Shown here in pieces: positions 13,854 through 51,768 of a stretch of DNA of 64,000 bases. Made by a program: the position numbers and the translations under genes. The DNA is taken from the NCBI GenBank assembly GCA_947168565.1, contig CAMVMM010000009.1:22292-86291 (forward strand), in the 5' to 3' direction. The notes beneath the pieces were generated by a model. It worked only from the letters and a program-made list of their open reading frames with translations, had not been told where the DNA came from and ran no database searches. Origin of the DNA: an uncultured Clostridia bacterium (GTDB lineage: Bacteria; Bacillota; Clostridia; Christensenellales; CAG-138). The first letter of the stretch is position 1, and each line of letters begins with the position of its first letter.

Positions 13854-15194
13854 ATGAATATTGCGCTTATAACCCTCGGCTGCCGTGTGAATCAATACGA
13901 GAGCGACGCAATGGCGGAGCTGCTCACAAACGCGGGGCATACTGTGGTGAACGATCCCGTGCTTGCGGATGTGTGCATAGTGAACACCTGCACCGTAACC
14001 AATATCGCGGATCAAAAATCGCGGCGTATGCTTTCAAGAGCGCACCGCATCAATGAAAACGCCAGGCTCATCGCCGCCGGCTGCTGGTCGCAGCGCAGCC
14101 CGGAGCAGGCTGCAAAAATCGAGGGAGTGGACGCCGTTTTGGGCAGCTCCGACCGCTCGCGGATAGTTGAAATAGTTGAAGGGCTTTTTCGTGATCATTC
14201 AAACGAACCCGAAAGAGAAGGCAAAGGTGAAAGCGGCAGGATCATGGTTTCGGACGTGATGCGGGAAACGGGCTTTGAGGAGCTCTCCGCCGTACACGAG
14301 GGCAGGACCCGCGCCTACCTTAAGATTCAGGACGGGTGCAATAAATTCTGCACTTACTGCGCGATCCCCTATGCGCGCGGCAGGCTGCGCTCAAGAAGCC
14401 TTGAATCCGTTCGCGCCGAGGCGGTAAAGCTTGATTCCGAGGGCTTTGTGGAGGTGGTGCTGACCGGCATCCACCTTATGAGCTACGGCGTTGATTTCAA
14501 GGACGGCACCGATATTGCGGACGCCGTGAAGTGCTTCGAGGGGCTTCAAAACATCAAGCGCATTCGCTTCGGCTCGCTTGAGCCGCATCTTATGACGGAA
14601 AGCCTTATCAATAAGCTTGCAGCGGAAAAGCGCATCTGCCGCCAGTTTCACCTTTCGCTCCAGAGCGGCTCGGATACCGTGCTTGAAAGGATGAACCGCG
14701 GCTATACCTCGGAGCAGTATCTGGAGGTTTGCAGAGCGCTCAGGCGAGCGTTTGGCGAGGAAACCGCCATCACGACCGATATTATCGCGGGCTTTCCGGG
14801 CGAAACCGAGCGCGAGCACGGCGAAACCATCGCCTTTATAAAAAGCATACCCCTTGCAAGGGCGCACGTGTTTCCCTATTCAAGGCGCAGCGGCACTAAG
14901 GCGGCAAGCATGCCGAATCAGCTTTCAAATGCCGAAAAGAGCCGCAGAGCGCAGGAGCTTATCGCCGTTTCAAGGGAGCTTGAGCATGATTTTCTTTCAA
15001 GCTATATTGGAAAAACCGTGGAGGTGCTGATCGAAAGATCGGATCGCGGCAGCTCCGCCGGCTGCACGGATACCTATGCAAGGGTAGTTATTGATTCTGA
15101 ACTCCCGCCGAACACACTCGCGCGGGTTCAAATAACCGAAGTAAAGGAGGAAAACGATGGAGAACTGTCTCTTTTGTCGCATTGTTTCGGGTGA
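13854..15194 (+). CDS. mtaB: tRNA methylthiotransferase, MtaB/MiaB-like radical SAM
   Basis: UPF0004 head (LGCRVNQYESD), radical SAM CNKFCTYCAIP, TRAM tail. It occupies the same prmA-rsmE-mtaB order as Bacillus yqeT-yqeU-yqeV. Confidence 0.85.
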   Translation: MNIALITLGCRVNQYESDAMAELLTNAGHTVVNDPVLADVCIVNTCTVTNIADQKSRRMLSRAHRINENARLIAAGCWSQRSPEQAAKIEGVDAVLGSSDRSRIVEIVEGLFRDHSNEPEREGKGESGRIMVSDVMRETGFEELSAVHEGRTRAYLKIQDGCNKFCTYCAIPYARGRLRSRSLESVRAEAVKLDSEGFVEVVLTGIHLMSYGVDFKDGTDIADAVKCFEGLQNIKRIRFGSLEPHLMTESLINKLAAEKRICRQFHLSLQSGSDTVLERMNRGYTSEQYLEVCRALRRAFGEETAITTDIIAGFPGETEREHGETIAFIKSIPLARAHVFPYSRRSGTKAASMPNQLSNAEKSRRAQELIAVSRELEHDFLSSYIGKTVEVLIERSDRGSSAGCTDTYARVVIDSELPPNTLARVQITEVKEENDGELSLLSHCFG

Positions 15195-21495: not shown

Positions 21496-21525
21496 AATGC
21501 AAAGGATTCCTTGGAGGACAGCTCT

Positions 21526-24500
21526 ATGCTTCAGCTTGTAAATATAACCAAACGCTATAAAACCGGCGAGCTCGTGCAAACCGCGCTGGACGGCGTGAGC
21601 CTTGCTTTTCGTGAAAGCGAGTTTGTGGCGGTGCTCGGCCCGAGCGGCTCGGGCAAAACCACGCTTTTGAATATCATCGGCGGCCTTGATCGCTACGACA
21701 GCGGCGATCTTATCATCAATTCCGTTTCCACAAAGGAATATTCCGACAGGGATTGGGACGCCTATCGAAACCATACCATCGGCTTCGTGTTTCAAAGCTA
21801 CAACCTCATCCCGCATCAGTCCGTGCTTGCGAACGTGGAGCTTGCGCTCACCATCTCCGGCGTCAGCCGCGCCGAGCGCAGAAGAAGGGCGAAGGAGGCG
21901 CTGAATAAGGTCGGCCTTGGCGATCAGCTCCATAAGCGCCCAAACCAGATGAGCGGCGGGCAGATGCAGCGCGTGGCGATTGCGCGCGCCCTTGTGAACG
22001 ATCCGGACGTGCTGCTTGCGGATGAGCCCACCGGCGCGCTCGATTCCGAAACGGGCGTTGCCGTGATGGAGCTTTTGAGGGAGGTTGCAAAAACGCGCCT
22101 CGTTATCATGGTAACGCATAACGGCGAGCTTGCGGAGCAGTACGCAACGCGCACCGTGCGCCTGAAGGACGGCAGAATAATCTCCGATACCGACCCCTTC
22201 GATCCTGCGGCGGAAGGAGCGGCGCGGGCGGAAAAGGATTTGGAAGTTACGGAAGGCAAAAAGCAAAAGACCCGGAAAAAAAGGGTCTCCATGAGCTTTT
22301 GGACGGCGCTCTCCCTCAGCCTGAACAATCTTCGCACCAAGAAGGGCAGAACGCTTCTCACGGCGTTTGCGGGCTCAATCGGCATAATCGGAATTGCGAT
22401 GATACTTTCGCTTTCAACCGGAATACACAACTACGTGTCCGATATTCAGCGGGAAACGCTCTCATCCTATCCGATAGTGCTTGAGCGCGAGCCGAACGAT
22501 ATGCTTAAATCCTTCCTTACCGCGCGGCAGGGGGACAGGGAGGAGCGCGAAAGCAGGAGCAAGGATAAAGTGTATTCCAATCCGCGCATCTACCGCATGT
22601 TTAACGCGGCGTTCACCGGCGGAAGCGAAACAAACAACGTGTCCGCGTTTAAAGCCTTCTTCGATTCAAAACTTGCGGACGGCGCATCCGACCTTTCGCG
22701 CCTCGTTTCGGCGGTGCAGTACGGCTATGAGCCATCGCTGAACGTTTATTTTATGAACGGCGAGGGCGTGTATAAGAATACCGATGTGTCCCGCTCCCTT
22801 TTCGGCGGCGAAAACGGCGAGGACTCCGTGGGCATGAGCATGTTCAGCATGGTTTCATCCCGAATGAGCAGCATGAACCTGTTTTCGGAGCTGCTCTGCG
22901 GCAGAAACGGCGAGCTGCTTGCCCCGATGGTCACGGAGCAATACGATCTGCTTGCGGGAAGCTGGCCCGAAAAGGCGGAGGAGATACTGCTTGTGCTCGA
23001 TCAGCGCGGCGAAATAAGCGACAACGCCTTTTATGCCCTGGGCTATATCGAGGAGGAGGAGCTTCGCTCAATCCTGAATTCCGTTTTCAAGGGCGAGGAA
23101 ATTGAGGAAAAAACGCGCAGCGCCGAGTTTTCGGAGATCATCGGCAAGCAGTTCAAGCTTGTGCTGAATTTTGAGCAGTACAGAAAGTCGGAAAGCGACG
23201 CCGCGCTCTGGGAGTTTATAGGCGACGACGAAAAGTCGATGGAGCTGATAATCAAAAACGGCATCGATCTGAAGATAGTGGGCATCATCAAGCCCAATTC
23301 CTCCAGCGCAATGCAGATAACCGGCGCATTCGGCTACACGAGGCTGCTTACGGACGCCATAATCGAAAAAACCGCCGCTTCGGAGCTGATAAAAGAGCAG
23401 AGCAGGAGCGAAAACGAAAACCTCGATATTATCAGCGGGCTGCCCTTCGTTATAGCGGATTCGGAGGAGCCCTCGGCCGATGAAAAGGCGGAGCTTGCGC
23501 GGGAGTATTTTTCACAGATAAACGATGCGCAGAAGGTGGATATCTACACCAAAATTCTTGCCCTTCCGGATGAAACGGAGCTTGCCGCGCTGGTGGAGGG
23601 GTATCTTGCGCAGTATCCCGACCGCGAGGCGCAGATAGAGCTTGCCTCCGCCACCTTCGGCTTCTCCAAGGATGAGATGCGCGAATACCTTGCGGATTAT
23701 ACCGACGAGGAGCTTAAAAACCTGATGGTGGAGCAGATAAGGGGCATAGTTTCCGCGCAGCAGGAGGAGGCGGCGAAGCTGCAGATCGCGCAGCTTGTGC
23801 GCGAATTATCCGAGCCGGGCGATCTTTTCGGCGTAACAGGCTACCGCGCCGTTGCCGCTATGTTTGACGCGCAGATGGCGGGGGAGAGCACCGAAAAGCT
23901 TGCTCTGTATCACGATAAATTCATGCCGGCCAAGGTTTCCGGCTCCACCCTTGCGGACAGGCTGAAGGAGTTTGGCAAAATAGACGCAAACGAGCCCGCC
24001 ACCATCAGCATCTACACCTCCTCTTTTGACGATAAGGAGGCGGTGACGGACGCGATAAAGGCGTATAACGAAGGCGTGCAGAACCCCGAGGATGCGATAG
24101 AATATACCGATTACGTTGCGCTCCTTATGAGCGGCGTTACCACCATGATAGACGCGGTGTCCTACGGCCTTATCGCGTTCGTGGCGATCTCGCTGGTGGT
24201 TTCATCCATCATGATTGGCATCATCACATATATCTCCGTGCTTGAGCGCACCAAGGAGATCGGCATCCTGCGCTCCATCGGCGCGTCCAAGCGCAACGTG
24301 CGCTCCGTTTTCAACGCGGAAACGCTCATCGTCGGCTTCTTTGCGGGGCTTATAGGTATAGGTGTTACAGTGCTGCTGTGCATACCGCTGAATATCATAC
24401 TGCGCAGGCTCACGGGCATCGAAACGCTCAGGGCGGTGCTTCCGCTCAATGCGGCCGTGGTGCTGGTGCTTATAAGCATGCTGCTGACGCTTATTTCCGG

Positions 24501-24561
24501 CCTTATCCCTGCGGGAGTTGCCGCAAGGAAGGATCCTGTAACCGCGCTTAGAACGGAATAA
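21526..24561 (+). CDS. Fused ABC transporter: MacB/LolD-type ATPase plus FtsX-type permease with a very large extracytoplasmic domain (1011 aa)
   Basis: Walker A GPSGSGKTT, signature MSGGQMQRVAIARAL and Walker B LLADEPTGALD. TM1 lies near residue 280, followed by an acidic/coiled region of about 590 aa, then a C-terminal FtsX 3-TM bundle (EIGILRSIGASKRNV). Confidence 0.85.
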   Translation: MLQLVNITKRYKTGELVQTALDGVSLAFRESEFVAVLGPSGSGKTTLLNIIGGLDRYDSGDLIINSVSTKEYSDRDWDAYRNHTIGFVFQSYNLIPHQSVLANVELALTISGVSRAERRRRAKEALNKVGLGDQLHKRPNQMSGGQMQRVAIARALVNDPDVLLADEPTGALDSETGVAVMELLREVAKTRLVIMVTHNGELAEQYATRTVRLKDGRIISDTDPFDPAAEGAARAEKDLEVTEGKKQKTRKKRVSMSFWTALSLSLNNLRTKKGRTLLTAFAGSIGIIGIAMILSLSTGIHNYVSDIQRETLSSYPIVLEREPNDMLKSFLTARQGDREERESRSKDKVYSNPRIYRMFNAAFTGGSETNNVSAFKAFFDSKLADGASDLSRLVSAVQYGYEPSLNVYFMNGEGVYKNTDVSRSLFGGENGEDSVGMSMFSMVSSRMSSMNLFSELLCGRNGELLAPMVTEQYDLLAGSWPEKAEEILLVLDQRGEISDNAFYALGYIEEEELRSILNSVFKGEEIEEKTRSAEFSEIIGKQFKLVLNFEQYRKSESDAALWEFIGDDEKSMELIIKNGIDLKIVGIIKPNSSSAMQITGAFGYTRLLTDAIIEKTAASELIKEQSRSENENLDIISGLPFVIADSEEPSADEKAELAREYFSQINDAQKVDIYTKILALPDETELAALVEGYLAQYPDREAQIELASATFGFSKDEMREYLADYTDEELKNLMVEQIRGIVSAQQEEAAKLQIAQLVRELSEPGDLFGVTGYRAVAAMFDAQMAGESTEKLALYHDKFMPAKVSGSTLADRLKEFGKIDANEPATISIYTSSFDDKEAVTDAIKAYNEGVQNPEDAIEYTDYVALLMSGVTTMIDAVSYGLIAFVAISLVVSSIMIGIITYISVLERTKEIGILRSIGASKRNVRSVFNAETLIVGFFAGLIGIGVTVLLCIPLNIILRRLTGIETLRAVLPLNAAVVLVLISMLLTLISGLIPAGVAARKDPVTALRTE

Positions 24562-24623
24562 GCGCTTTTGCAGACGAGCTGCACCCTTCGCTGCAACTAA
24601 TCAAAGCAACAGGTAAAACAAAT

Positions 24624-24657
24624 GCAAGCCCCGGTTTTTCGGGGCTTGCGCGTTTTG
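24624..24657. terminator. Bidirectional rho-independent terminator (ABC gene / rubredoxin gene)
   Basis: GCAAGCCCCG gttttt CGGGGCTTGC, a 10-bp stem with T/A runs on both sides. Confidence 0.75.
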
Positions 24658-24682
24658 TGCTGAAATATCAAATAATACAGGC

Positions 24683-24817
24683 TTATTCGGCGGGGCTGAA
24701 ATCCTCCTTGCCGACGCCGCAGAGCTCACATACGAAATCCTCGGGAAGATCCTCCCACTTGGTTCCGGCTTCGTCCTCATCGTAAACCCAGCCGCACACG
24801 TTGCAAACATACTTCAT
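24683..24817 (-). CDS. Rubredoxin, short form (44 aa), absent from the ORF track
   Basis: Own translation: [44 protein letters not shown]. It has two CxxCG knuckles and conserved aromatic residues. The GGAG SD lies 8 nt upstream, and the bidirectional terminator is downstream. Confidence 0.85.
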
Positions 24818-24931
24818 AATAAAAATCTCCTTTTAGATTCTATAATTACAAACCTACCCGATTTGCTTGATTTGATTATACACGTATTGAAGCAAAATTT
24901 CAAGGCGGAAATGTGATAAAGTCACACATTA

Positions 24932-25135
24932 TCAACCGTTGCCGAGAATAGTGATAAGCGTTATCCCAAGGCTTATCAGGGTGAGTACTCCGAAAAATGC
25001 GATCCATCTATGAATGCTCGTCAGCTCTTCAAGCGAGCGCTTCTGAACCTCAAGAAGCTGCTCAAGGCTGAATGGGGCTTGATCTCCGTTTCCCTGAATG
25101 CTCTCGTTTTCAAAGCCGAAGCCGTCGTTTTCCAT
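24932..25135 (-). CDS. Small tail-anchored membrane protein, unknown function (67 aa)
   Basis: ATG 25135 lies behind AAGGAG. Acidic head (MENDGFGFENES) and one C-terminal TM (WIAFFGVLTLISLGITLITIL). Confidence 0.4.
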   Translation of the reverse strand: MENDGFGFENESIQGNGDQAPFSLEQLLEVQKRSLEELTSIHRWIAFFGVLTLISLGITLITILGNG

Positions 25136-25269
25136 AAAAATCTCCTTCCGCATAAGTAATGCTTTATGCTGAAGAAAGTATACCAAAAAGAAGCTGCTTT
25201 TTCAAGTTTTAATTATCGGAACCTAAACAATATAGTATAAATTGAACGGGCAAGCCGATCCGGCAAGCC

Positions 25270-26136
25270 TTACGGCATGGTGTACGCGACATAATCAGCT
25301 ATTTTGATAAACGGCAGCTCGCGCAGCACGGCGATCTCCTCCTCCGGCTCAGCGAAATAAACCACATGCTTCGCGCCGTCCGCCTTCGCCTGATTGAGCG
25401 ATCTGATAAGCAGCTTTTTCATCACGTCGCGGCGGAAAATTCCGTCCTTATGGTCGAAGCCGAATATCTCCATCATACCGCCGACGGTGGTAAAATACAC
25501 GCAGCCGAGCGCCTCGCCGCGCTCGCATAAAAGATAGAGCCGCCAGGGGTTTTGGGTGTTTCCGCGAACCGCTTCAAGCAGACGGTCGCTGTTCCAATAC
25601 ATATCGTCATGATCCCTGTCGTGCAGCGCACGGAAGGCGGAATAGTTTTGCTCCGTCACCTCCTCGATGCCCGCAGCCTCATCAAGCGGCGAATAGTCGC
25701 AAAAATGAAGCGCAAAGCAGGTGCTTTGATCGAGCCTTCGCAGGCCGAGCGCGGAGAGATGCGAAAGCGCCTCGGTGTTTTCCAGCGGGAAACCGAAGTC
25801 AATGCGGAAGCCCGAAAAGCGGGCTTTTGCGTACTCCAAAAATTCGTCGATCGCCTGGGCCGCGCCGCGCTTCACATTAAAAACGACAAAGGATAGATAC
25901 TTTTCTTCCTCGATCCAATAGTAATGGATAAGCCCCAGAACCTCTCCGCGATCGCAATAGAGCAGCAGCTCCTCGTCGTCCCTTTCAAGACCCGCATAGA
26001 CCCTGCTGAAAAAATCCTCCTTTGTTTTGATGCCGTCCGTATAGGTCGGAAACGAGGAATGCGCGAGGTCCTGCGAGAGCGCGTAAAACATTTCTATATT
26101 GGCGTCTATATCCGCCCTGTTCGCTTTTGTGAGCAT
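25270..26136 (-). CDS. Putative tandem GNAT-like acyltransferase (288 aa)
   Basis: Two halves each have a GNAT-like beta-bulge region (LGLIHYYWIEEE.., LGCVYFTTVGGMMEIFGF). No strong Q/RxxGxG/A motif, so the family assignment is weak. Confidence 0.35.
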   Translation of the reverse strand: MLTKANRADIDANIEMFYALSQDLAHSSFPTYTDGIKTKEDFFSRVYAGLERDDEELLLYCDRGEVLGLIHYYWIEEEKYLSFVVFNVKRGAAQAIDEFLEYAKARFSGFRIDFGFPLENTEALSHLSALGLRRLDQSTCFALHFCDYSPLDEAAGIEEVTEQNYSAFRALHDRDHDDMYWNSDRLLEAVRGNTQNPWRLYLLCERGEALGCVYFTTVGGMMEIFGFDHKDGIFRRDVMKKLLIRSLNQAKADGAKHVVYFAEPEEEIAVLRELPFIKIADYVAYTMP

Positions 26137-26300
26137 AGCCGTGCCGCCTTTTAAATTTTTAAGCTTATTATACACCTTCCAGTGCAAAGAAGCAACGCAT
26201 TCGTGGGATATTCACGCGAAATGACGATGAATAATAGCAATAATCAAAAAGGAGCGCTGCCGGTTAAGATAGCGCCCTTTCAATGCCTGAGATCAAGCGA

Positions 26301-26390
26301 TTATTTGTCGAAATACCTCTTGAGCAGACCCTCGAACGCCTTGCCATGCCTTGCCTCGTCGCGCGCCATCTCATGGACGATGTGCGTCGC
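26301..26390 (-). pseudogene. Rubrerythrin 3' remnant (last ~29 codons only)
   Basis: The minus-strand translation [29 protein letters not shown] parallels the C-terminus of the intact gene ([26 protein letters not shown]). A 19-bp identical core CCTCGTCGCGCGCCATCTC occurs at 26354-26372 and 26952-26970. No upstream coding part remains. Confidence 0.7.
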
Positions 26391-26537
26391 TTCGCGCCGC
26401 CGAACACTGCTGCGGCCTCCTAATGAGATACAGCCTTTCTTTGTAGTATGGCTGTATTCTAAGCCAAAAGGCGCAGTTTTTCAAGGCTTTCGAAAATACT
26501 ACTGCAAGAAAGATGTTCAAAAATGTATGAAGACACC

Positions 26538-26573
26538 CAATAAAGAAGGAGCAAGGCTCATCCTTGCTCCTTC
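26538..26573 (-). terminator. Rho-independent terminator after the 100-aa orphan gene
   Basis: GAAGGAGCAAGG / CCTTGCTCCTTC, a 12-bp perfect stem followed on the minus strand by TTTATTG. Confidence 0.7.
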
Positions 26574-26583
26574 AAAAATGGTA

Positions 26584-26886
26584 TTAATGTGAAAACTTTT
26601 CCAATGAGTAGAGCGAAAAGTTCAACCTTTCTACGTCCTGATGATTGCCAAGCGGCAGTTCATTATACATTCCACCGAAAGCCAGGGAAAGAAATGGCAG
26701 CAATGCCAGTTTCCTGCGTGAAAAGCTGATGAAGCAAAAATAATTCCCATCAAAGCTCTTGGATGGGCCTTCCGTAAAGAACGACCAATCGACATGATAG
26801 TAATCCGCTAGCTTTCTCATCTCTTCCTCTGAGAGTCTGAGCAAGGCATCATAATCACCGACACCGTTCCACTTGTAAGCGGTCAT
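26584..26886 (-). CDS. Hypothetical protein, 100 aa, low-G+C orphan
   Basis: The ATG lies 15 nt after the rubrerythrin stop with an AAAGGA SD. Composition is clearly more AT-rich than the neighbours. No recognisable motif (MTAYKWNGVGDYDALLRLSEEEMRKLADYYHVDW...). Confidence 0.5.
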   Translation of the reverse strand: MTAYKWNGVGDYDALLRLSEEEMRKLADYYHVDWSFFTEGPSKSFDGNYFCFISFSRRKLALLPFLSLAFGGMYNELPLGNHQDVERLNFSLYSLEKFSH

Positions 26887-26901
26887 GGGATAATCCTTTG
26901 C

Positions 26902-27444
26902 TTACTTGAAATATCTCTCCAGAAGACCTTTGAAGGCTTTTCCGTGGCGGGCCTCGTCGCGCGCCATCTCGTGAACGGTGTCGTGGATGGCGTCAAGATT
27001 CAGCGCCTTTGCACGCTTTGCAAGGTCGGTCTTGCCTGCGGTGGCGCCGTTCTCGGCCTCAACGCGCATCTCAAGGTTCTTCTTGGTGCTGGGGGTAACC
27101 ACCTCGCCCAGAAGCTCAGCGAACTTCGCCGCATGCTCGGCCTCCTCCCATGCCGCCTTTTCCCAGTAAAGGCCGATCTCGGGATAGCCCTCGCGGTGAG
27201 CAACGCGCGCCATGGCAAGATACATTCCGACCTCGGAGCATTCGCCCTGGAAATTCATGCGCAGATCGGCAATGATATCCTCGGGAGCGCCCTCGGCAAC
27301 GCCGACCACGTGCTCGGCAGCCCAGCTCATTTCACCGCTCTGCTCGGTGAATTTGGAAGCGGGGGCGTGGCACTGGGGGCATTCGGCGGGAGCCTCGTTG
27401 CCCTCGAAAACATAGCCGCAAACGGAACATACAAACTTTTTCAT
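26902..27444 (-). CDS. rbr: Reverse rubrerythrin (N-terminal rubredoxin-like domain plus C-terminal diiron four-helix bundle), 180 aa
   Basis: N-terminal CSVCGY...CPQCHAP, then diiron ligand motifs ([26 protein letters not shown]). ATG 27444 lies behind GGAGG. Confidence 0.9.
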
Positions 27445-27630
27445 ATTAACCTCCAATAATTGTGAATTACGGCAGCCGCAGCACAAGATGTTGTGGCAAG
27501 CCGCGCTTTTGGGTACAAGACTATTTTATCATATATTAACAAAAAGTCAATAATTTATTTTAAAATTCGGCAATATATTGCGCGCAATCAGATCTGACCG
27601 CGCTTAAAATCGCAAGCTTCTGAAATTTGA

Positions 27631-28593: not shown

Positions 28594-29286
28594 CTAAAGC
28601 CTTTCCGAAAGATAGGCGTTCAGCTTTGTGAGCGCGCGCTTCTCTATCCTTGAAACATATGATCTGGAGATGCCGAGCAGCTTTGCAACCTCCCTTTGCG
28701 CAAGCGGAACGCCGTCCTTCAGCCCGTAGCGCAGTATCACCACGATGCGCTCCTGCTCCGAAAGCAGCCTGCCGACTGCGGCTCGAAGCGTTTTCGCGTT
28801 CGAAGCTTCTATCACGCTGTCCGTAAGCGGAGCATCGCCGCTTGCAAGCACGTCCGAAAGGGTGATCTCGTTTCCGTCGCGGTCGCTGCCGATTGGCTCC
28901 TCAAGTGAAATATCGCCCCTGTACTTCTTTTCTCCTCTTATGGACATCAGTATTTCGTTTTCGATGCAGCGCGAGGCATAGCCCGCCACGCTTTTGCATT
29001 TTTCGCCGTTGAAGGTGTCCACCGCCTTTATCAGGCCAACGGTTCCTATTGATATTAGATCGTCCGCGCTTCTTGAAGGCGAAGCGTATTTCTTTGCAAT
29101 ATGAGCCACAAGCCGAAGGTTGTGCTCGATAAGCTTGTTTCTTGCCTCCGCGTCGCCGCTTTCAAGTTTTTTCGTAAGCTCCGCTTCTTCCTTTTGCGAA
29201 AGCGGCGGGGGAAAGCTGCCTTTAGGCGTTATCGCGCCCACAAGCACGAATATGCTTTTTATCAGCTCTATCAATGCACCTATCAT
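28594..29286 (-). CDS. sigK: Sporulation sigma factor SigK (pro-form, uninterrupted)
   Basis: GSFPPPLSQKEE...ARNKLIEHNLRLVAHIAKKY, CIENEILM and GISRSYVSRIEKRAL closely parallel B. subtilis SigK. A ~20-aa hydrophobic pro-sequence is present. No intervening element. Confidence 0.85.
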   Translation of the reverse strand: MIGALIELIKSIFVLVGAITPKGSFPPPLSQKEEAELTKKLESGDAEARNKLIEHNLRLVAHIAKKYASPSRSADDLISIGTVGLIKAVDTFNGEKCKSVAGYASRCIENEILMSIRGEKKYRGDISLEEPIGSDRDGNEITLSDVLASGDAPLTDSVIEASNAKTLRAAVGRLLSEQERIVVILRYGLKDGVPLAQREVAKLLGISRSYVSRIEKRALTKLNAYLSERL

Positions 29287-29341: not shown

Positions 29342-29434
29342 CGGTATTTGTTTTTCTTTGTGTCGATTTGACATTTTTTGTTTGAAAATGTGCTTTTTTA
29401 ATCGCAATTCCATGGTCTTGTATAAAAATTTTTG

Positions 29435-29463
29435 TTGATAAATCGGAAAATATAAAGTAAAAT
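29435..29463 (+). promoter_or_regulatory. Sigma-A type promoter of the Spo0A-like gene
   Basis: TTGATA, a 17-nt spacer, then TAAAAT, about 30 nt before GTG 29496 (SD GGAGGGAG). Confidence 0.5.
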
Positions 29464-29495
29464 CTTATCAGCAAAACAGATAGGAGGGAGAGCAG

Positions 29496-30398
29496 GTGAA
29501 CAGCTTTGATTTGGGAACGGGCGCTTTCAAGCAAAAGCCGCTTGCGATGCTGCTTTTTGATGCTGATGAAGCGGGCGATGATTCGGAGGAGCGCAAAGGC
29601 TCGGAGAGGCTAAGCCGTGCCGCAGAGCAGTCCTATCCAAGCAGGCTGAGGACTGCGCTGGAGAAGCATTTTCGCGTTGTGTCCATAGTCGGAAACTGCA
29701 GCGAGCTTTGGACGGAGCTTTTCAACGAGATACCGAACGTGCTTATCGTGAGCAGCGCCCTGCGCGAGTTTGACGCGGTCGGGCTTATCCGCAGCCTGAA
29801 ATCAAGCCGAAACAGCTATGATATCCGCTTCTTTCTGAGCTGCAGGCGCGTGAACGCCTCCATAATGAGCGTTTGCCGCGCGGAGGGCATAGACGGCTGC
29901 ATACCGCTTGATGAGGACGTGGATATGTCCGCAGCCCGCGTGTTTGAGCAGTACAGCTCGCTTGAAAAGTCCGCAGATGAGCGAAGGCTTGAGCTTATCA
30001 AGAAAATGATTGAAAGCGATATGTATTTCAGGGACGTTGCGGTGCGTTTTGAGGAGGATTCAAGGCTCCGCGAAGCGCTGCTGCTCCCGCTCGGCTTCAA
30101 TCCGGAGCATAAGGGCACAAAATACCTTGAGCTGATGATAGGACTGCGAGTGCTCGGCTGTGAAAGCAATATGGCGCTGCTGTATGCTCTGGCGGGCAAT
30201 TGCTTCGGCGTGTCCAAGGCGTCGGTTGAAAAAGCGGTGCGCTATTCCATAGAGCGCGCCTGGAGCGGCTCGACCCCCTATATGCAGTATCGGTTATTCG
30301 GAAACACGGTCGATTCCGAAAAGGGCAAGCCGACCAATGCGGAATTTGTTGAAACCCTGGTGCGGCACACTATCGATTATTACAAGCCCGGCTTTTGA
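29496..30398 (+). CDS. Spo0A-like protein: degenerate (pseudo-)receiver domain plus conserved Spo0A C-terminal DNA-binding domain
   Basis: The C-terminus (HKGTKYLELMIG...VSKASVEKAVRYSIERAWS...GKPTNAEFVETLV) aligns with Spo0A-C (HIKGYLYLREAI...ASRVERAIRHAIEVAWS...AKPTNSEFIAMVA). In the N-terminal REC-like fold the phospho-acceptor position reads IVSSAL instead of LVLDIIMP, and the conserved Lys is missing. Confidence 0.8.
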   Translation: MNSFDLGTGAFKQKPLAMLLFDADEAGDDSEERKGSERLSRAAEQSYPSRLRTALEKHFRVVSIVGNCSELWTELFNEIPNVLIVSSALREFDAVGLIRSLKSSRNSYDIRFFLSCRRVNASIMSVCRAEGIDGCIPLDEDVDMSAARVFEQYSSLEKSADERRLELIKKMIESDMYFRDVAVRFEEDSRLREALLLPLGFNPEHKGTKYLELMIGLRVLGCESNMALLYALAGNCFGVSKASVEKAVRYSIERAWSGSTPYMQYRLFGNTVDSEKGKPTNAEFVETLVRHTIDYYKPGF

Positions 30399-31696
30399 TG
30401 CGGGCAAGCTTGGCATTAACTATGGTTATTATCGGAAACGGAAGGCTTATCCGCTTCACCTCGGGCGAGTTTTGCATCGAGGGCGGCGCGGTATGCGTTG
30501 AGGGCAAAAGCGTTAAGGATTTTGGCGCGGATGCGGAGCTTCGGCAAAAGTACCCGGAGGCTGATTATATTGACGCGCGCGGGGGCTTGATAATGCCGGG
30601 CCTTATAGACGCGCATTCCCGCGCCCGCTACTGCATGCTGCACCACCGTGAAATTCCATCCTTCAAGCCGGAGGAGAGCAGCCGCCTTGCAGATGGGCTT
30701 CTGCGGAGGATGGACGAAAAAACGAATCACGATGAGCTCATCTCAACTGCCCTGCATCATGCGCGGCGCTGCATTAAAAGCGGAATCACGACCGTGTTCG
30801 AGCATCACGTTTCCCCGTCGGATCCGTGCGGAAGCCTGATCACCCTTGCGGGCGTTTACCGTGAGTGCGGAATAAGAGCGTGCCTTGATTATGAGGTGAG
30901 CAGCAGATTCGGCACGCGGCACGCGATGGCGGCGGTAAAGGAAAGCGTGGAGTTTATAGAATACTGCGAGGAGCTGAATATTGATACCGTGAAGCCCATG
31001 ATAGGGCTCGGCAATTCACTTTACCTCAGCAACGAGCAGCTTGAGGACTGCATAAGATCGGCAAACGGCAGGGCGGGGTTTCATATCCAAGCGGGCGGAT
31101 CGGTTGAGGAGGTTTCCTTTTCCATAAGAAAATTCGGGGCGCGTCCGCTTCAAAGGCTTGACAGGCTTGGGATCATAGGCTCTCGGAGCATCGTTTCGGG
31201 CTGTGTGTACGCAGATTCCGACGAATGGGAGCTTCTGCTTTCGCGCGGGGGCTTTGCAGCGCTCACGCCGAATCTCGCAATGCTTATGGGCGGCGCGTAT
31301 AAAAGCGCGGCGCTTGGGGCGGTGATGAGCGAACGGGCCTGCATCTGAAGCGCTCCGCTTTCAGGCGAACTGATAAGCGCTGCGCACGCCCTCTGCGGAA
31401 TGCTTGCTCTGGACGGGGCGGCGCAGGAGGATTACAGAACTCCGGGCGCGAAAATGCTGTTTCACGCAAACCCGCTGCTTGCTTCCGGGGTGTTCGGCGC
31501 CGGCCTTGGCAGAATCGAGATAGGCGCGCCCGCAGATCTGATCGTTATGGAAACAAACGAACCGGCTTCTCCCGAAACCGAGGAGGAGTGCTTTTCGCTT
31601 CTTACGGATTTCGGAACCCGCTGCACCCATACTTTTGTCGCGGGCAGGCTTTTGATGCGGGACGGAGAGCTGCTGAACGACGATATGACGCTCTGA
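30398..31696 (+). pseudogene. Amidohydrolase-superfamily (chlorohydrolase/SsnA/MtaD-like) gene interrupted by one in-frame TGA (31346-31348), with degenerate metal ligands
   Basis: Track ORFs 30395..31348 and 31400..31696 are in the same frame with a single TGA between them. The fold is recognisable (PGLIDAHSR.., ..GAPADLIVME...FVAGRLLMRDGELL), but HxH reads HSR and later His/Asp ligand positions are substituted. The ATG overlaps the upstream TGA (TGATG). Confidence 0.65.
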
Positions 31697-31751
31697 TACA
31701 GGCCGAACCCGTTTTTTTAAACACGATCCATTCAACACGATCCATCCGACC

Positions 31752-33200
31752 ATGAGTGAGCTGCGTAAAAAAGAGAACAATTTGCGCGTGGATGCTCCTC
31801 CCGCTCCCGAAGCTTCACAGCGGGCGGGCGGAGCGTGCGCATTTTCCTATTTTGTGTGCGAAAGCAGGCGGGAGGCGGAGGAGCTCAAAGCAAAGCTTGG
31901 CGATTTCGCGTCCGGAAAGGGTATGCGGATAAACGGCTTTTTCTACGATATAGCCGGGAGGCAGCCCTACGTGCTGCTGAACCTGATAGATATCTGCTCG
32001 AAAAGGAAAAACGCAAAGCTGCTTGCGCCTTCTCCCGCGCATATCGGCGGCGGAGGTCTTGCCGAGATGGCGCTGAACGCTCACGCCGCGCGGAAAGGAT
32101 TACGCATTATTTACGCCGAGCCCAAGCGCGAACGCCTTGAGATAGGCGGAACGGAGCTCGGCGCATTTCCCGTGCGCGTATTTTTTCTTCAAAATATAGC
32201 GAATTATTTCGGCTTCGGGCAGGACAGATCAAACAGCGCGAGCCCCGGAAGCAGGGGCGGAAAGTGCATTCAGGGCAGGCTCCCCCTGGGCTTTGTGTCC
32301 GCTCACGGCAGAATATGCGTGGATGAGCGGGGCGCGGAAGCGGTGAGGGAGATATTTGCCCGCTTTGCGAGGCTTGAAACCCCAACGGGCATAATTGACG
32401 CTGTTAAAAAGCGCTATCCGGATATAAATTGCCCAACAAGAAATAATATCTATTCGCTGATCTGCAATCCAAGATATATCGGCAGGGGAGAGAGCGCGTT
32501 TCCGCCGATAATTGAAAACAGGCTGTATCTTGATGCCTGCGCGGCCCTGGAAAAAAGAGGTATCTGCGAGCGTGAGCATCTGTTTCTGCTCGACAGCTTG
32601 AGCTGCGCGGGAGGAATAAAGCTTTTGCCGATCGAGTACAGCTCGCGGCTGCACACGAGCGCCTACGCTTCAAAGGGCGCAAAACCGAAGCTCTCCGTGC
32701 GTGCGGACGAAGCGGAAGCCGCCGTTCTCAGCTGCGTTTGCGAATCTCTTTCGGGCGAGATACCGGAGCTGCGCAGGCTCTGCACGGGATCCGCTTCCTT
32801 TGCGGGGCTTTTTCATACCGAAGCCCTGGCGCTTGAAAGCGAGCTTGATGAGGCGGTGGACGAGCTTCTTTCCTCATCCAAAGGCAGCTCCGCTTATGCA
32901 AGAAAATTCTCCGTGCGCTCATTCGACGAGCTCTCCGCACGATGCAGGCTGCTTAAAATCAGAATAGCCCATCTTGAATACCTTCACGGTCTTTTCAGCG
33001 TAACGGAGGAGATGGTGAACGAGTATCTGGGCAGGCTTTCAAGCCTTGAAACGGCATCGAGGCGCGAGAAAAGGTTTTTTCTTGACCATATCGTGAAAAA
33101 CGTTTCGATCGATGAAAACGAGCTTATCGTGTCGGTCTATTGCCCAAGGGGCATAAAGCGCATACGCTCCGCTCTTTGCGCACGGCTTGTGGCGGAATAA
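31752..33200 (+). CDS. Large-serine-recombinase-like protein with a degenerate catalytic domain (482 aa)
   Basis: The recombinase domain is well kept (GRLPLGFVSAHGRICVDERGAEAVREIFARFARLETPTGIIDAVKK...ICNPRYIGRG), as are the coiled-coil and C-terminal tail. The N-terminal resolvase motifs are eroded: YxRxS reads YFVCES, the DRLSR region is absent, and no Zn-ribbon Cys pairs are present. Confidence 0.6.
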   Translation: MSELRKKENNLRVDAPPAPEASQRAGGACAFSYFVCESRREAEELKAKLGDFASGKGMRINGFFYDIAGRQPYVLLNLIDICSKRKNAKLLAPSPAHIGGGGLAEMALNAHAARKGLRIIYAEPKRERLEIGGTELGAFPVRVFFLQNIANYFGFGQDRSNSASPGSRGGKCIQGRLPLGFVSAHGRICVDERGAEAVREIFARFARLETPTGIIDAVKKRYPDINCPTRNNIYSLICNPRYIGRGESAFPPIIENRLYLDACAALEKRGICEREHLFLLDSLSCAGGIKLLPIEYSSRLHTSAYASKGAKPKLSVRADEAEAAVLSCVCESLSGEIPELRRLCTGSASFAGLFHTEALALESELDEAVDELLSSSKGSSAYARKFSVRSFDELSARCRLLKIRIAHLEYLHGLFSVTEEMVNEYLGRLSSLETASRREKRFFLDHIVKNVSIDENELIVSVYCPRGIKRIRSALCARLVAE

Positions 33201-33270
33201 TTTACCTCGGGCTATGGACATATCCCCGCAAATGTGCTATATTTGATATATCAAAACACGGAGGCAGCTT

Positions 33271-33762
33271 ATGGCAAACGCTAAAAAGGTTGGCACACTG
33301 ATAAAAAAAGCCCGCACGGACGCGGGGCTGACGCAGGAGCAGCTTGCGCGCAAGGTAAAGGGCGCGAGCGCGAGCGACATCGGAAGGGCGGAGCGCGGTG
33401 AGAAGGAGCTGACGCAGGAGCAGCTGAAGCAGGTTGCAAAGGCAACGGGCGTTACTCAAAAATCGCTGCTTGACGCGGCAAAGGGCTCGGGCGGCAAGAC
33501 CTCCGGCACGGGAAAGACTTCGGCTGCCACTTCCACAATAAAAGTGACCGCCACCGAAAAGCGCCTTGTGGAGCTTTACAGGAAGGCGGATTCTCAAACG
33601 AGGCAAAACGCGCTCAAGCTTCTCAGGGGCAGCGGCGCGGGCGAGATCGCCGCCGGGGATATTCTTTCCGGCGTGCTGAACGCCATCACCGGAAAGCGCT
33701 CCATGCCCGACGAGGTGCAGCGCAATTCGGAGGAGAGCGCTTCTCAAACCACCGAGGAGTGA
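33271..33762 (+). CDS. XRE-family HTH protein with a Gly/Ser/Thr-rich linker (163 aa)
   Basis: VGTLIKKARTDAGLTQEQLARKV...DIGRAERGEKELTQEQL is an HTH_3 pattern. Confidence 0.75.
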   Translation: MANAKKVGTLIKKARTDAGLTQEQLARKVKGASASDIGRAERGEKELTQEQLKQVAKATGVTQKSLLDAAKGSGGKTSGTGKTSAATSTIKVTATEKRLVELYRKADSQTRQNALKLLRGSGAGEIAAGDILSGVLNAITGKRSMPDEVQRNSEESASQTTEE

Positions 33763-33769
33763 TCAAAGA

Positions 33770-34501
33770 TCAGCTTTTTGAATAGTCAAACGAGGCGATA
33801 AGGCGGAAGGTGAAATTGAATTCCGCCTTTTCGTCATCCTCGGTCTCACAGTAAAAGCGGGCGCTCCCCGCTTTTTTATCGTAGGTTTTGCGGGAATAAT
33901 ACGCGCTTTCAATGGAATCGAGCAGCTTTTTGCCGTCTATGGTCGATATTTTGCAGTCCTCGGAAAGCAGCTCGCAGATGCTCTCAAGATAGGCGCGGAT
34001 GAGTGCGCAGTCGCCCTTTTCGCGCTTCCTGTACTCCGCCCTTATCGCATCGGCGACAGGCTCAGAATAGCTTTCATCAGGCTCGCCAGCGTAGATATAC
34101 GCAAGCTCCAGGGCCGATTCGATCACCCTGCCCAGAGAGTCCGTTTTAAGCTCAAGCAGCGCCTCGCCGCGCCCGTCGGGTAGCCGGAGCGGATAGGCAA
34201 AGGCATTGTCGCCGAGTATACGCACCTCGCCTATCTCGCAGCTCATCCCGCCGCCGCGAAGCGCGTCGATAAAGCGCTTCATGGTTACGCCCTTGGGAAC
34301 TGCGGTGGGAGCGGGCAGGGGAGTGGGGGCTGCGACTGCGGACGACGGAAGCGCGCGGTCGGGCCGCCCGAATATGAGAAAGAGCGCAACGCAAGCACAG
34401 GCAAGCAGGATGCAAACGATCAGCTTTACCCTTTCGCCGCCGGGCTTCATGCCCTTCTTTTTTTGCGCGCCCTTTGCCATAGCTTGAAAAAGGAGCCGCA
34501 C
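33770..34501 (-). CDS. Hypothetical membrane-anchored protein
   Basis: N-terminal TM (LIVCILLACACVALFLIF), a PT-rich linker and a ~170-aa extracytoplasmic domain without recognisable motifs. The start is uncertain (several Met in the first 18 codons). Confidence 0.45.
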   Translation of the reverse strand: MRLLFQAMAKGAQKKKGMKPGGERVKLIVCILLACACVALFLIFGRPDRALPSSAVAAPTPLPAPTAVPKGVTMKRFIDALRGGGMSCEIGEVRILGDNAFAYPLRLPDGRGEALLELKTDSLGRVIESALELAYIYAGEPDESYSEPVADAIRAEYRKREKGDCALIRAYLESICELLSEDCKISTIDGKKLLDSIESAYYSRKTYDKKAGSARFYCETEDDEKAEFNFTFRLIASFDYSKS

Positions 34502-42998: not shown

Positions 42999-44969
42999 TC
43001 ACGGGGTGACGGACAAGGATCTGATCCGATCAAACGGATTCATCAGCTTGCCGTATACCGGAGCGGTGATCTTCGAGGAGTGGATAAAAGCGTACCTGCC
43101 GGCGAAGCGAACGTGATACCAGCTTCCCACGGCGTGCCAAACCTCAACGGATACGCCGGGATACAGCACGAATATCGGAGCGCTGTATTCGGAGGGGCCG
43201 AACCTGAGCTGTGCATCCAGCACGCCGGGGCGCACGGTGGAGTAGCCGATCGCGTGCTCCGCGCCCAAGGGAGCGGGGAAGAGATCCACGCGCACAAGAT
43301 CGCCGCGGATATAGCCCAGCTTATTGTTTGCTATGCACACGAGCCAGCCGTTCGTTTCCGTTATCACGTCCACGTGAGTGCCGATGGGAAGCGTGTCGAT
43401 GATGGAATGATCCGTTCCGGGGCCGGACCTCATGCGGGCGGAGGAGGCGGAAACCGTGCCGAAGGCAACAGGCTGCTTGGAATAGGAGTTCGGCAGCTCC
43501 GGGTCGCGCTCGCGTACCTCGCGCAGATCCATGCCGGGATAGTAGAATTTCAGTATTTGACTGTAATTGAAGCCGTCCTTGGCTCTGCCGTCCGCGCCGT
43601 GCTGAGAAAGCCCCAGGCCGTGACCGTAGCGGCATCTGTAAACGGTGTAGCCTCCGGAGGTGGCCCTGCCCCAATAGATGCGAAGGTTGCGCCCGGGCTT
43701 GTACAGCACGGAGTAGGTGCCGAGGAGCGATACGTCAAACTCAAGCGAAACGGTGCTTATCGTTCCGTTGTCGTTCACCCTTGCGGAAACGCTCATCCGC
43801 GTCAGATCCAGGGTGGTATCGGGGTGTTTCCTTGTGTGAACGCTCGCGCTTGTAACTGTAATAAGCTCCGCGCTGTGCCCAAGCTGCTGCGCGATTCGGT
43901 CATTCAGAAGGCTTCTGAAATTCGCGTTCGTTACCGGCTCGCCATACACGATGTTCAGCTCGCTGATGTAATCATCGGGTGTGTTTGGCATATCATAGGG
44001 GTCGAGGCGAACGGAATACGCGCCGTCAAAGCCGGATGAACCGAACGCATACGAGGGAAGGGTTGTTTCGCCGCCGTTGGTCGCGCCGAAATTCGTGGGA
44101 GCAAGGATATTGCCGTAGAAAAGGATCTTGCCGCACATCTCGCGGCAGGGCTCCCACGCAAAGCTGCTGCCCACGCTGTCGGAATAGCCGCGATAGCCAA
44201 GATGAGCCATCGAGGATGTGATATCATAATTCTCGTTGCCTGAGGAATACGCAAAGGCATAGGTCTTTGCGGCTATTGCCTGCGCATATACCGCCTCCCT
44301 GTGCCACGAGCCGTTGATCTCATAAGGCACTATGCCGTAGAGGTAATGCGCGGTAGGCACCACGTTTATAATATCAAGCTCGCTGCCGCTTGCCATGATG
44401 CGGAAGCTGCCCAAATAATCCTTATCGTTGGTGCTGCTGCTCGGCACGGTCTGCACGTTTGCATACCCGCCGGAGCGGGAGAGCAAAACGCGGTTAAGGT
44501 CGATCACGCTGCCCGAATAAACCAAAGCTGCATTGTAATAAGCATAAGCTATTCCGTTTGAAGCGGTGAAGCGAACGATGGCGGGCTGATTCTGCGTGCC
44601 AACGATAGGGGTCAGCGTTTGATCAATATAATACGCACCGTATAGCGCAAGCCTTATTTCCCGAACGGCAATATCGGGTTCGTGCGTCAAAAGCACGCGA
44701 ACGGTGGAGTAATCGTCCGCCTCCGTGCGCTCCGAGATTCTTTGCGCAAGGGGCGTGCCGTCCTCATAATAAGGAAGCTGCATCGAGTTTGGGTATTCGT
44801 TTTCATTTACGGCAGCCGGCGGGCAGCTTTCTATATTTGAAACCAAATGGTCATCCGATGCCGAAGGGCTGCTCGAAGGGGGCTTGGCCGAAGCGGGCAG
44901 GGCAACCGTGCCGAAAATAATAATCAGCGCGGTGAGGAATGCAAGCAGTTTTGTGCTGTTGCGCTTCAT
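42999..44969 (-). CDS. SpoIID/LytB-domain protein with two C-terminal SH3b domains (secreted)
   Basis: Signal peptide ending ALPASA. SpoIID/LytB core (VYAQAIAAKTYAF ... FGATNGGETT ... LSQHGA). Two C-terminal SH3b modules (SARMRSGPGTDHSIIDTLPIGTHV.., LDAQLRFGPSEYSAPIFVLYPG..). Confidence 0.8.
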   Translation of the reverse strand: MKRNSTKLLAFLTALIIIFGTVALPASAKPPSSSPSASDDHLVSNIESCPPAAVNENEYPNSMQLPYYEDGTPLAQRISERTEADDYSTVRVLLTHEPDIAVREIRLALYGAYYIDQTLTPIVGTQNQPAIVRFTASNGIAYAYYNAALVYSGSVIDLNRVLLSRSGGYANVQTVPSSSTNDKDYLGSFRIMASGSELDIINVVPTAHYLYGIVPYEINGSWHREAVYAQAIAAKTYAFAYSSGNENYDITSSMAHLGYRGYSDSVGSSFAWEPCREMCGKILFYGNILAPTNFGATNGGETTLPSYAFGSSGFDGAYSVRLDPYDMPNTPDDYISELNIVYGEPVTNANFRSLLNDRIAQQLGHSAELITVTSASVHTRKHPDTTLDLTRMSVSARVNDNGTISTVSLEFDVSLLGTYSVLYKPGRNLRIYWGRATSGGYTVYRCRYGHGLGLSQHGADGRAKDGFNYSQILKFYYPGMDLREVRERDPELPNSYSKQPVAFGTVSASSARMRSGPGTDHSIIDTLPIGTHVDVITETNGWLVCIANNKLGYIRGDLVRVDLFPAPLGAEHAIGYSTVRPGVLDAQLRFGPSEYSAPIFVLYPGVSVEVWHAVGSWYHVRFAGRYAFIHSSKITAPVYGKLMNPFDRIRSLSVTP

Positions 44970-50569: not shown

Positions 50570-50681
50570 CTATGATGCAGTGCCTTTCTGTTTTGCTCGT
50601 TTGAATATTATGTTTACGATGGTTGCGCCAAAAAACAGGCGGAACATTTATCCGTGTTCCGCCGAAGCGACAAAGCCGGGG

Positions 50682-51443: not shown

Positions 51444-51768
51444 GGCTGATCCCTCCGATCAAATATTGAGCAGCATCAGAATGCCGCTATTTTATTATAA
51501 TTCATTTTCGTTTCAGTTTCAAGCGCTCCGGAAAGCGGAATAGGATAATTTATTTTGGGATCGGCGCACTCAAAAGGGATTTTGACATTTTTTGTACACA
51601 TTTGGTCAAACAAAAGCCATGCTTTAATACCTTTGATTGCCATATTTTCTTGATACAATGCTATTGGTATAAGTATGTGCTTTTTGCTGTTTATTGCAAT
51701 CTGTGTATGCGCCCCTGTATCGTGCTTTACGGGGCAAAGCAAAATACTGCGGCAAGGAGAATAAAATA

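Follow-up and report, generated by a model that had tools for sequence, protein, structure and literature searches.

Does the group of genes beside sigK in an uncultured Clostridia bacterium represent a decaying mobile element, or has it been domesticated for a role in the chromosome? The question arises from a stretch of 64,000 nucleotides (nt) of its DNA (contig CAMVMM010000009.1, positions 22,292 to 86,291; hereafter the window), in which four plus-strand open reading frames (ORFs), designated g1 to g4, occupy 29496-33762. A first-pass annotation had described them as one co-directional unit for a Spo0A-like protein, an amidohydrolase, a serine-recombinase-like protein and an XRE-family helix-turn-helix (HTH) protein, in which every fold had lost its chemistry. 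Our analysis indicated that g1-g2-g3 (29496-33200) is probably an old, vertically inherited chromosomal operon encoding a non-catalytic DNA-binding or regulatory module. Judged from sequence comparison and predicted structure, this is a case of domestication, and neither of decay nor of a mobile element. To date, the three-gene cassette is known only from a small clade of Clostridia, which are uncultured and represented by metagenomes of ruminant and other guts. Its features, together with sigK, are as follows.

28594 to 29286, minus strand: sigK (pro-sigma-K), divergent neighbour and context gene outside the operon (NF004471, 289 bits against a cut-off of 252)
29435 to 29463, plus strand: promoter-like site of the sigma-A type ahead of g1, TTGATA-17-TAAAAT (scan: agreement with the consensus at 10 of 12 positions)
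29496 to 30398, plus strand: g1, Spo0A paralogue-like protein of 300 amino acids (aa), GTG start, AGGAGGG ribosome-binding site upstream
30398 (ATG) or 30395 (TTG) to 31696, plus strand: g2, SsnA-like amidohydrolase homologue, 432 codons in one frame with a single in-frame TGA
31346 to 31348, plus strand: the in-frame TGA of g2, located by translation at the position of the Gly in the orthologues' strand-8 'GTD' motif
31752 to 33200, plus strand: g3, catalytically dead large serine recombinase (LSR) homologue of 482 aa, identified by profile search and fold

The ORF listing and translation reproduced all four ORFs as earlier described, with their plus-strand order, the gaps of -1 (or -4 with the TTG start), 55 and 70 nt between g1/g2, g2/g3 and g3/g4, and the convergent gene at the end. 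The g2 frame was listed as a first segment (30395/30398-31348) and a same-frame continuation (31400-31696). The site TTGATA-17-TAAAAT was the best promoter-like site predicted by the scan of the region, and its -10 element and part of its -35 element aligned with the loci L006, L003 and L007 of relatives. The operon would be read, and its genes presumably co-transcribed, from this sigma-A-type promoter. The earlier statement that a single promoter of this type serves the block held in so far as the site was found, but a second promoter-like site lies before g4. The G+C content of the block (0.55-0.58) was host-like as claimed, falling within the range of the flanks (0.47-0.60).

Conservation of the three-gene cassette

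At least eight independent contigs of relatives carried g1-g2-g3 closely spaced and in an unchanged order. The cassette was complete, with gaps of 3-34 nt, in L003, L004, L005, L006, L007, L011 (from the goat abomasum metagenome-assembled genome (MAG) RGIG1529) and L012 (from a JGI metagenome). In L010 (rumen MAG RUG13931) and L014, g2-g3 were present and g1 was cut by the contig end. The identity of g1 between the window and the relatives' loci was 38-54% where g1 was complete, and the order and short gaps of the cassette held down to about 25% identity in g3 (L005, L014). The co-inheritance that comparative genomics had been proposed to check was thus observed for g1-g2-g3, but not for g4, which was absent.

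The usual context of the cassette was yqfD-phoH-ybeY-era-recO-cpsB-sigK(-) on one side and miaB-mutS-mutL on the other. The proximity to sigK, to which importance had been attached, was seen here and in L003, L004, L006, L007 and L011, but L005 has htrA upstream instead and distant members of the g3 family adjoin recX. The miaB-mutS-mutL side was kept in L014, and this linkage was more persistent than the adjacency of sigK, which was confined to a subclade. A link of the cassette to sporulation is consequently suggested only by the Spo0A_C domain of g1, to which the adjacency of sigK adds support in that subclade alone. A cluster of response-regulator, histidine-kinase and HtrA-like protease genes at 48830-53028 of the window showed 31-41% identity to the genes directly upstream of the L005 cassette, and may consist of their paralogues or be a relocated neighbourhood.

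The ratios of non-synonymous to synonymous substitution rates (dN/dS), calculated between L003 and L007, were 0.195 for g1, 0.166 for g2 and 0.143 for g3, and 0.067 for sigK, 0.059 for cpsB and 0.055 for miaB. The values of 0.14-0.20 indicated that g1-g3 are under purifying selection and therefore not decaying. They also agreed with the view that catalytic or phospho-acceptor residues had been lost three times with the ORFs preserved, the residues concerned being mapped gene by gene below. Conservation differed between the parts of the proteins. The mean pairwise identity was 0.60 in the Spo0A_C domain of g1 versus 0.40 in its pseudo-receiver, and 0.30 in the recombinase domain of g3 versus 0.23 in the dead catalytic N-terminal domain and 0.17 in the coiled coil. 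The best conserved parts were therefore the Spo0A_C and recombinase domains, as expected from the earlier suggestion that the DNA-binding parts are what selection keeps.

These data bear on the possibility that the block is the decaying remnant of a prophage, a skin-like element or an integrative element, its genes being pseudogenes. Such an origin would fit the descent of g3 from an integrase type typical of phages and skin elements, the in-frame TGA in the window g2, the XRE gene that follows g3 and the faster evolution of the cassette than of its flanks. However, it is opposed by the dN/dS values of 0.14-0.20 and by ORFs that are full-length in all relatives at 25-54% identity, as well as by the conserved place among housekeeping genes, the XRE gene that is not co-inherited and the host-like G+C content. 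The search for traces of mobility pointed in the same direction. No relatives of g3 were detected in 2.9 million viral contigs, the matches in phage records were all distant (23-28% identity across most of the alignment), and plasmid relatives were not found. Repeats flanking the block were not above chance, and the window contained neither tRNA genes nor any match to Rfam families. PADLOC returned nothing except generic HTH models for g4, with no known defence system matched, and the PHROG matches of the block were only to integrase and generic repressor families. The idea that a recombinase and an XRE regulator form a prophage or element core was not sustained by these results, since viral relatives, repeats and tRNA genes were missing and chromosomal synteny was conserved. 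The decaying-remnant explanation is largely refuted for g1 and g3, and we consider it very improbable indeed for the block. Of the two origins suggested at first, domestication stood while decay did not.

The g3 family of dead recombinases

Sequence models matched g3 weakly. The Recombinase model PF07508 gave an expectation value (E) of 0.034, below its gathering score, and the integrase family phrog_95 gave E = 2.9e-7; the Pfam Resolvase model had no match to the window g3. PF07508 matched all five g3 orthologues, with a best E of 7.3e-5. A search with a four-sequence g3 alignment returned only two GTDB species representatives and one JGI contig, and the exact look-up of the window g1 and g3 products gave no database record. 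The exhaustive profile search retrieved 38 proteins at E <=1e-10, 23 of which were aligned as a family, and beyond this family the profile reached genuine LSRs, with Resolvase, Recombinase and Zn_ribbon_recom domains, at E of about 1e-10.

The AlphaFold2 model of g3 built from a 26-sequence alignment had a mean predicted local distance difference test score (pLDDT) of 85.3 and a predicted template modelling score (pTM) of 0.82, and the depth of the input mattered, as two sequences gave a pLDDT of 42.6. Foldseek analysis of this model detected the LSR-DNA complex 4kis (E = 2.4e-7), the phiC31 integrase 4bqq and 6dnw with a probability of 1.0. It also detected the catalytic domains of TP901-1, gamma-delta and Sin, and full-length phage integrases, these likewise with a probability of 1.0, at E of 1e-14 to 1e-11 with alignments of >500 columns. 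The predicted domains were a resolvase-like domain (residues 28-152), a recombinase domain (about 176-270), a beta-ribbon without cysteines (283-317), a long coiled coil (318-430) and a C-terminal beta domain (448-481). The model contained long helices at 318-377 and 388-415, and pLDDT was >90 at residues 190-240.

The residues required for catalysis were largely missing from the family, as listed below with the arginines in gamma-delta numbering.

Ser nucleophile: kept in 8 of 23 members; Glu in the window
R8-like Arg: kept in 6 of 23; Val in the window
'RP' Arg: kept in 0 of 23 and deleted in all 23, the window included
R68-like Arg: kept in 0 of 23; His in the window
R71-like Arg: kept in 3 of 23; Gly in the window
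Zinc cysteines: in essentially none of the 23; absent from the window, the Cys columns being gaps or Gly, Lys and similar residues

The nucleophile column was hypervariable across the family. In the recombinase domain, g3 kept the motifs GY and NxRYxG. The product of g3 was accordingly confirmed as serine-recombinase-like with an eroded active site, the nucleophile being Glu and the catalytic arginines and zinc cysteines being absent.

More distant members of the family, P0053 and P0060 (E of 1e-34 to 1e-21), were located in another housekeeping context, which is conserved as well, with the arrangement DUF885 lipoprotein gene, g3-like gene, recX, birA and yjeF. This second subfamily was observed in L013 (3288-4745) and in L016 and L017 (6001-7494). 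The DUF885-recX context of the distant members indicates that the dead-integrase family predates the three-gene cassette and extends beyond it. DNA-repair genes, either mutS-mutL or recX, adjoin the family member in each of the two contexts. An origin of g3 as a leftover of the sigK skin element was also considered and is not favoured: the adjacency to sigK was limited to a subclade, the linkage to miaB-mutS-mutL was steadier, and the distant members lie by recX.

g1 and the question of Spo0A

The C-terminal residues 195-291 of g1 formed a Spo0A_C DNA-binding domain (Pfam PF08769, 67 bits against a cut-off of 25, E = 1.7e-18), which was also matched by PDB entries 1fc3 and 1lq1 at E of about 1e-19 (2.7e-19 for 1fc3). 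The N-terminal half, at about residues 55-165, aligned to receiver domains (E = 2e-4), and the Pfam Response_reg model had no match to g1. The receiver positions were assigned by aligning the family with CheY, Spo0A of Bacillus subtilis and one of the window's own response regulators, a normal one; the B. subtilis Spo0A reference behaved as expected in BLAST. In g1, the acidic pair was Phe-Asp, the phospho-acceptor Asp was replaced by Ser, the conserved Thr by Ser and the conserved Lys by Leu, and a variable acidic insertion followed beta1. Across 14 full-length g1 homologues (33-97% identity, with Spo0A_C as their sole domain match), the acceptor position was mostly Ser, with Asp in two and Glu in two, and the Lys was lost in all. 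These results supported the initial description of g1 as a Spo0A-like protein with a pseudo-receiver. Pseudo-receivers that are regulated other than by phosphorylation are common and poorly understood (review PMC12632262). Spo0A is unmentioned in that review, and the combination of a pseudo-receiver with Spo0A_C was not found by the literature search.

The presence of Spo0A_C raised the possibility that these organisms have no Spo0A other than g1, with sporulation starting without aspartyl phosphorylation and with g2 and g3 as new inputs. Spo0A_C is treated as unique to, and diagnostic of, Spo0A, the master regulator of sporulation (PMC6136694), and no canonical spo0A was present within the 64 kb window. 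Sporulation genes were also present, the window having sigK and spoIID, and relatives yqfD and spoVT. The window spoIID gene (42999-44969, minus strand) encodes a 656-aa protein with a SpoIID domain and SH3_3 domains; this protein and sigK indicate that the organism carries sporulation genes. On the other side, g1 scored 49.2 bits with the Spo0A equivalog model TIGR02875, far below the cut-off of 200, and its Spo0A-C was 38% identical to that of B. subtilis, with differences in the recognition helix (Arg to Ser, Arg to Lys and His to Tyr). Moreover, the 64 kb of the window make up only a small fraction of the genome, and the homologue search with g1 itself returned canonical Spo0A proteins from unlinked contigs (P0015-P0019). 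We therefore regard g1 as very unlikely to be the sole Spo0A.

Spo0A boxes (TGTCGAA) were not enriched in the window, and none was present in the spacer between sigK and g1. This spacer contained, about 60 nt upstream of the g1 promoter, TGTCGAT followed by TTGACA (29361-29373), which makes a TGTC-N5-GACA inverted repeat including a Spo0A box with one mismatch (29361-29367). The repeat was found in L009 with one change and was not conserved in L006, L003 and L007.

The most divergent g1 homologue, in L008 (2949-4181), has 410 aa, about 110 of which form an additional N-terminal extension. Some of its neighbours were homologous to genes upstream of the window sigK, namely an ABC-FtsX gene (61% identity) and a rubrerythrin gene (88%), both within 21511-27486. 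A GNAT-family gene occurred in both neighbourhoods, and tblastn gave no match between the two.

Erosion of g2 and its in-frame TGA

The closest NCBIfam family of g2 was SsnA (200 bits, E = 5.9e-59), the next family scoring 58 bits. The N-terminal and C-terminal fragments reached 200 and 29 bits, respectively, under the cut-offs of 444 / 455, and the Pfam model Amidohydro_1 gave 42 bits against a cut-off of 25. The site residues were mapped onto PDB 4dyk and onto the orthologues, which were uninterrupted and of 435-452 aa. In the window g2, HxH was changed to H-S-R, the strand-5 His to Gln, the Glu to Gly, the strand-6 His to Gly and the strand-8 Asp to Ala, which confirmed the amidohydrolase with dead ligands and, at 31346-31348, a TGA. 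The state of the site differed among the lineages.

L003, L007 and L010: HxH kept (HAH), strand-5 His kept, Glu kept, strand-8 Asp kept
L006: HxH kept, strand-5 His kept, Glu lost, strand-8 Asp kept
L014: HxH lost (HAN), strand-5 His lost, Glu lost, strand-8 Asp kept
L005: HxH lost (HSR), strand-5 His lost, Glu lost, strand-8 Asp lost
Window: HxH lost (HSR), strand-5 His lost, Glu lost, strand-8 Asp lost

The strand-6 His was lost in every g2 orthologue, and none retained the full active-site set. As far as these residues tell, the g2 family is a putative series from enzyme to pseudoenzyme, in which erosion is lineage-specific.

The 1.7 kb contig L009, a relative at 97%, carried the same H-S-R motif. 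Its g2 differed from that of the window by 10 synonymous and 2 non-synonymous changes in the first 204 codons, which indicates that g2 was under constraint in the window lineage until very recently. The 116 codons past the TGA stay open and still align with the orthologues. No close relatives' database sequences spanning the TGA site were found. The TGA is most probably either a nonsense mutation of very recent date or an error in the assembly or consensus, and selenocysteine, read-through or an alternative genetic code is unlikely. Selenocysteine was judged improbable as the position is occupied by Gly, Gly, Gly, Cys (L006) and Ser in the orthologues, shuffled sequences fold as well as the downstream RNA (z = -0.63), which has no stable or unusual hairpin, and TGA is an ordinary stop elsewhere in the window, where it ends g1, g4, spoIID and others.

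The same evidence bears on whether the proteins could still be enzymes, with another nucleophile in g3, another metal site in g2 and the TGA decoded as selenocysteine or read through. The Cys at the TGA position in L006, the annotation of SsnA as a 'putative selenium metabolism protein' and the Ser at the nucleophile column in 8 of the 23 g3-family members speak for this. Nevertheless, the TGA falls at a position that is not conserved, in a site whose Asp is also gone, and in g3 the nucleophile column is hypervariable, the R68-like Arg is present in 0 of 23 and the 'RP' Arg is deleted in 23 of 23. We consider retained catalysis of this kind extremely unlikely.

The SsnA aminohydrolase opens the ring of dihydro-yanthine, a reduced purine, in anaerobic urate degradation (PMC12990295), and a purine-like ligand is therefore a reasonable guess for g2. 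Urate or purine-pathway genes were not present near g2 in the window or in the relatives' loci. The literature search for a link between SsnA and sporulation gave only the role of SsnA in anaerobic urate degradation.

g4 and the synteny break

The genes after g3 and the features around them are as follows.

33215 to 33243, plus strand: second promoter-like site TGGACA-17-TATATT with extended TG, directly before g4 (10 of 12 positions in the scan)
33271 to 33762, plus strand: g4, XRE-family HTH protein of 163 aa with HTH_3, a lineage-specific neighbour outside the conserved operon
33770 to 34501, minus strand: convergent ORF of 243 aa, from the ORF listing

The identification of the fourth gene as an XRE HTH protein was correct (HTH_3 PF01381, 35 bits against a cut-off of 23, E = 1.5e-8), and a GGAGG ribosome-binding site lies 7 nt ahead of its ATG. 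The four-gene unit, however, did not hold. A synteny break at 33201-33270 directly follows g3, and all relatives go on with miaB-mutS-mutL, whereas the window continues to about 39320 with g4, the 243-aa ORF, which is membrane-anchored, an M29 aminopeptidase gene, araC, a 174-aa ORF and rmuC. In tblastn, g4 and the genes downstream had no match in any relative's locus, and no miaB or mutS orthologue followed g3 in the window. The sole miaB-like gene of the window (13854-15194) was 34% identical and is thus probably a paralogue. In light of these comparisons, g4 is, by its predicted history, an unrelated lineage-specific neighbour that was acquired at the synteny break and not co-inherited. The statement that all four folds had lost their chemistry therefore applies to g1, g2 and g3, but not to the XRE protein, which has no chemistry to lose.

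Within g4, a 21-nt direct repeat (33324-33344 and 33405-33425, 95% identical, 81 nt apart) encodes LTQEQL twice, and the C-terminal 90 residues are of low complexity without a domain match. Only 7 nt separate the stop of g4 from that of the convergent 243-aa ORF (33762-33770), and no terminator-like hairpin was found between them by the scan.

Three proteins, one module?

In the operon that we favour, g1 would be a phosphorylation-independent transcription factor acting on Spo0A-box-like sites. The g3 protein would use its recombinase domain and coiled coil to bind or bridge specific DNA sites, which it would leave uncut. The g2 protein would be a ligand- or protein-binding pseudoenzyme that gives an input in place of phosphorylation, possibly in response to a purine-derived ligand. 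DNA binding, interaction among the g1, g2 and g3 products and a ligand of g2 may all be involved.

Several observations weigh against such a module. The dN/dS of the cassette was about three times that of the flanking housekeeping genes, which denotes relaxed constraint. The g1 homologue in L008 stands alone without adjacent g2 or g3, and the distant g3 homologues by DUF885 and recX have no g1 or g2 there; the coupling of g1-g2-g3 is hence not obligatory. The g2 proteins of the L003/L007/L010 clade may, by their residues, still be catalytic, so that g2 would not be uniformly a pseudoenzyme, and the TGA may mean that g2 is being lost in the window lineage.

The genes g1, g2 and g3 could accordingly be retained neighbours, held together by conserved synteny, with unrelated non-canonical roles and no common module. 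The lone g1 homologue in L008 and the g3-family members beside the DUF885 lipoprotein gene and recX, which lack g1 and g2, agree with this explanation. It is countered by the order and the gaps of 3-34 nt, which persist to about 25% g3 identity despite the change from sigK to htrA upstream, and by the similar dN/dS in all three genes. We regard mere neighbourhood as unlikely, and the operon for a regulatory module remains the preferred explanation.

A bolder form of this explanation would combine the dead integrase, the phosphorylation-independent Spo0A paralogue and the ligand-sensing pseudo-amidohydrolase into one three-protein DNA-binding switch, which would control sporulation genes such as sigK or DNA-repair genes (miaB-mutS-mutL, recX). 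In such a switch, the dead integrase would bind or bridge chromosomal sites and the pseudoenzyme would supply the input that phosphorylation gives to Spo0A; in its stronger version, g1 may be the only Spo0A of these organisms. This switch is speculative, and we think it decidedly unlikely as it stands.

The arrangement, a dead LSR family and a pseudo-receiver Spo0A paralogue coupled to an eroding SsnA homologue, is unusual and apparently undescribed, and a description of a dead-LSR family like that of g3 was not found by the literature search. Phages and mobile elements are the familiar setting of large serine recombinases, which also serve as tools for genome engineering. With its core chromosomal position, selection and lost chemistry, the g3 family is a candidate for the domestication of an integrase into a DNA-binding protein. 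A Spo0A_C protein that is conserved and has a pseudo-receiver points either to a second regulon of the Spo0A type or to sporulation being started in an unusual way. The operon also offers three independent examples of the passage from enzyme to pseudoenzyme in one predicted transcription unit, and the g2 lineages at different stages of erosion would be useful for studying how pseudoenzymes originate. Practical use is limited by uncultured organisms, a small clade and functions that are deduced from sequence.

Comparison with known systems

The gene spo0A normally follows spoIVB, and true Spo0A orthologues are usually far less divergent than g1. Like Spo0A (TIGR02875; PDB 1FC3, 1LQ1), g1 has a receiver-like N-terminal half and keeps the recognition-helix motif VEKAxRYSIExAW and the segment FGxTV..KGKPTNxEF. 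Unlike Spo0A, its receiver has lost the first acidic Asp, the phospho-acceptor Asp and the conserved Lys, and its gene is linked to amidohydrolase-like and recombinase-like genes, not to spoIVB. With the atypical response regulators that have pseudo-receivers (PMC12632262), g1 shares a receiver fold that lacks the phosphotransfer residues and is joined to a DNA-binding output, and presumably a regulation by something other than Asp phosphorylation; it differs from them in having Spo0A_C as the output.

The g2 protein shares with SsnA the Amidohydro_1 (beta/alpha)8 barrel and the composite domain, but it scores below the family cut-off, its metal and catalytic residues are replaced and its frame is broken by the TGA.

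The length class and domain order of g3 are those of the LSRs, such as phiC31 Int, the Listeria A118-type integrase (PDB 4KIS), TP901-1 Int and SpoIVCA of the sigK skin element of B. subtilis. In contrast to these enzymes, the g3 family has no conserved Ser nucleophile or zinc-ribbon cysteines, and it occupies a fixed chromosomal position off any mobile element and without att-like repeats. The window sigK is likewise unlike the sigK of a skin element, as it is intact and uninterrupted. In WhiA-type regulators, a catalytically dead homing-endonuclease fold is reused as a transcription factor of sporulation or cell division. The LAGLIDADG fold and family of WhiA are unrelated to g3 and no homology is claimed, but the two cases would be alike in concept, namely that a DNA-cutting enzyme of a selfish element has been domesticated, under selection, to a chromosomal DNA-binding protein that does not cut.

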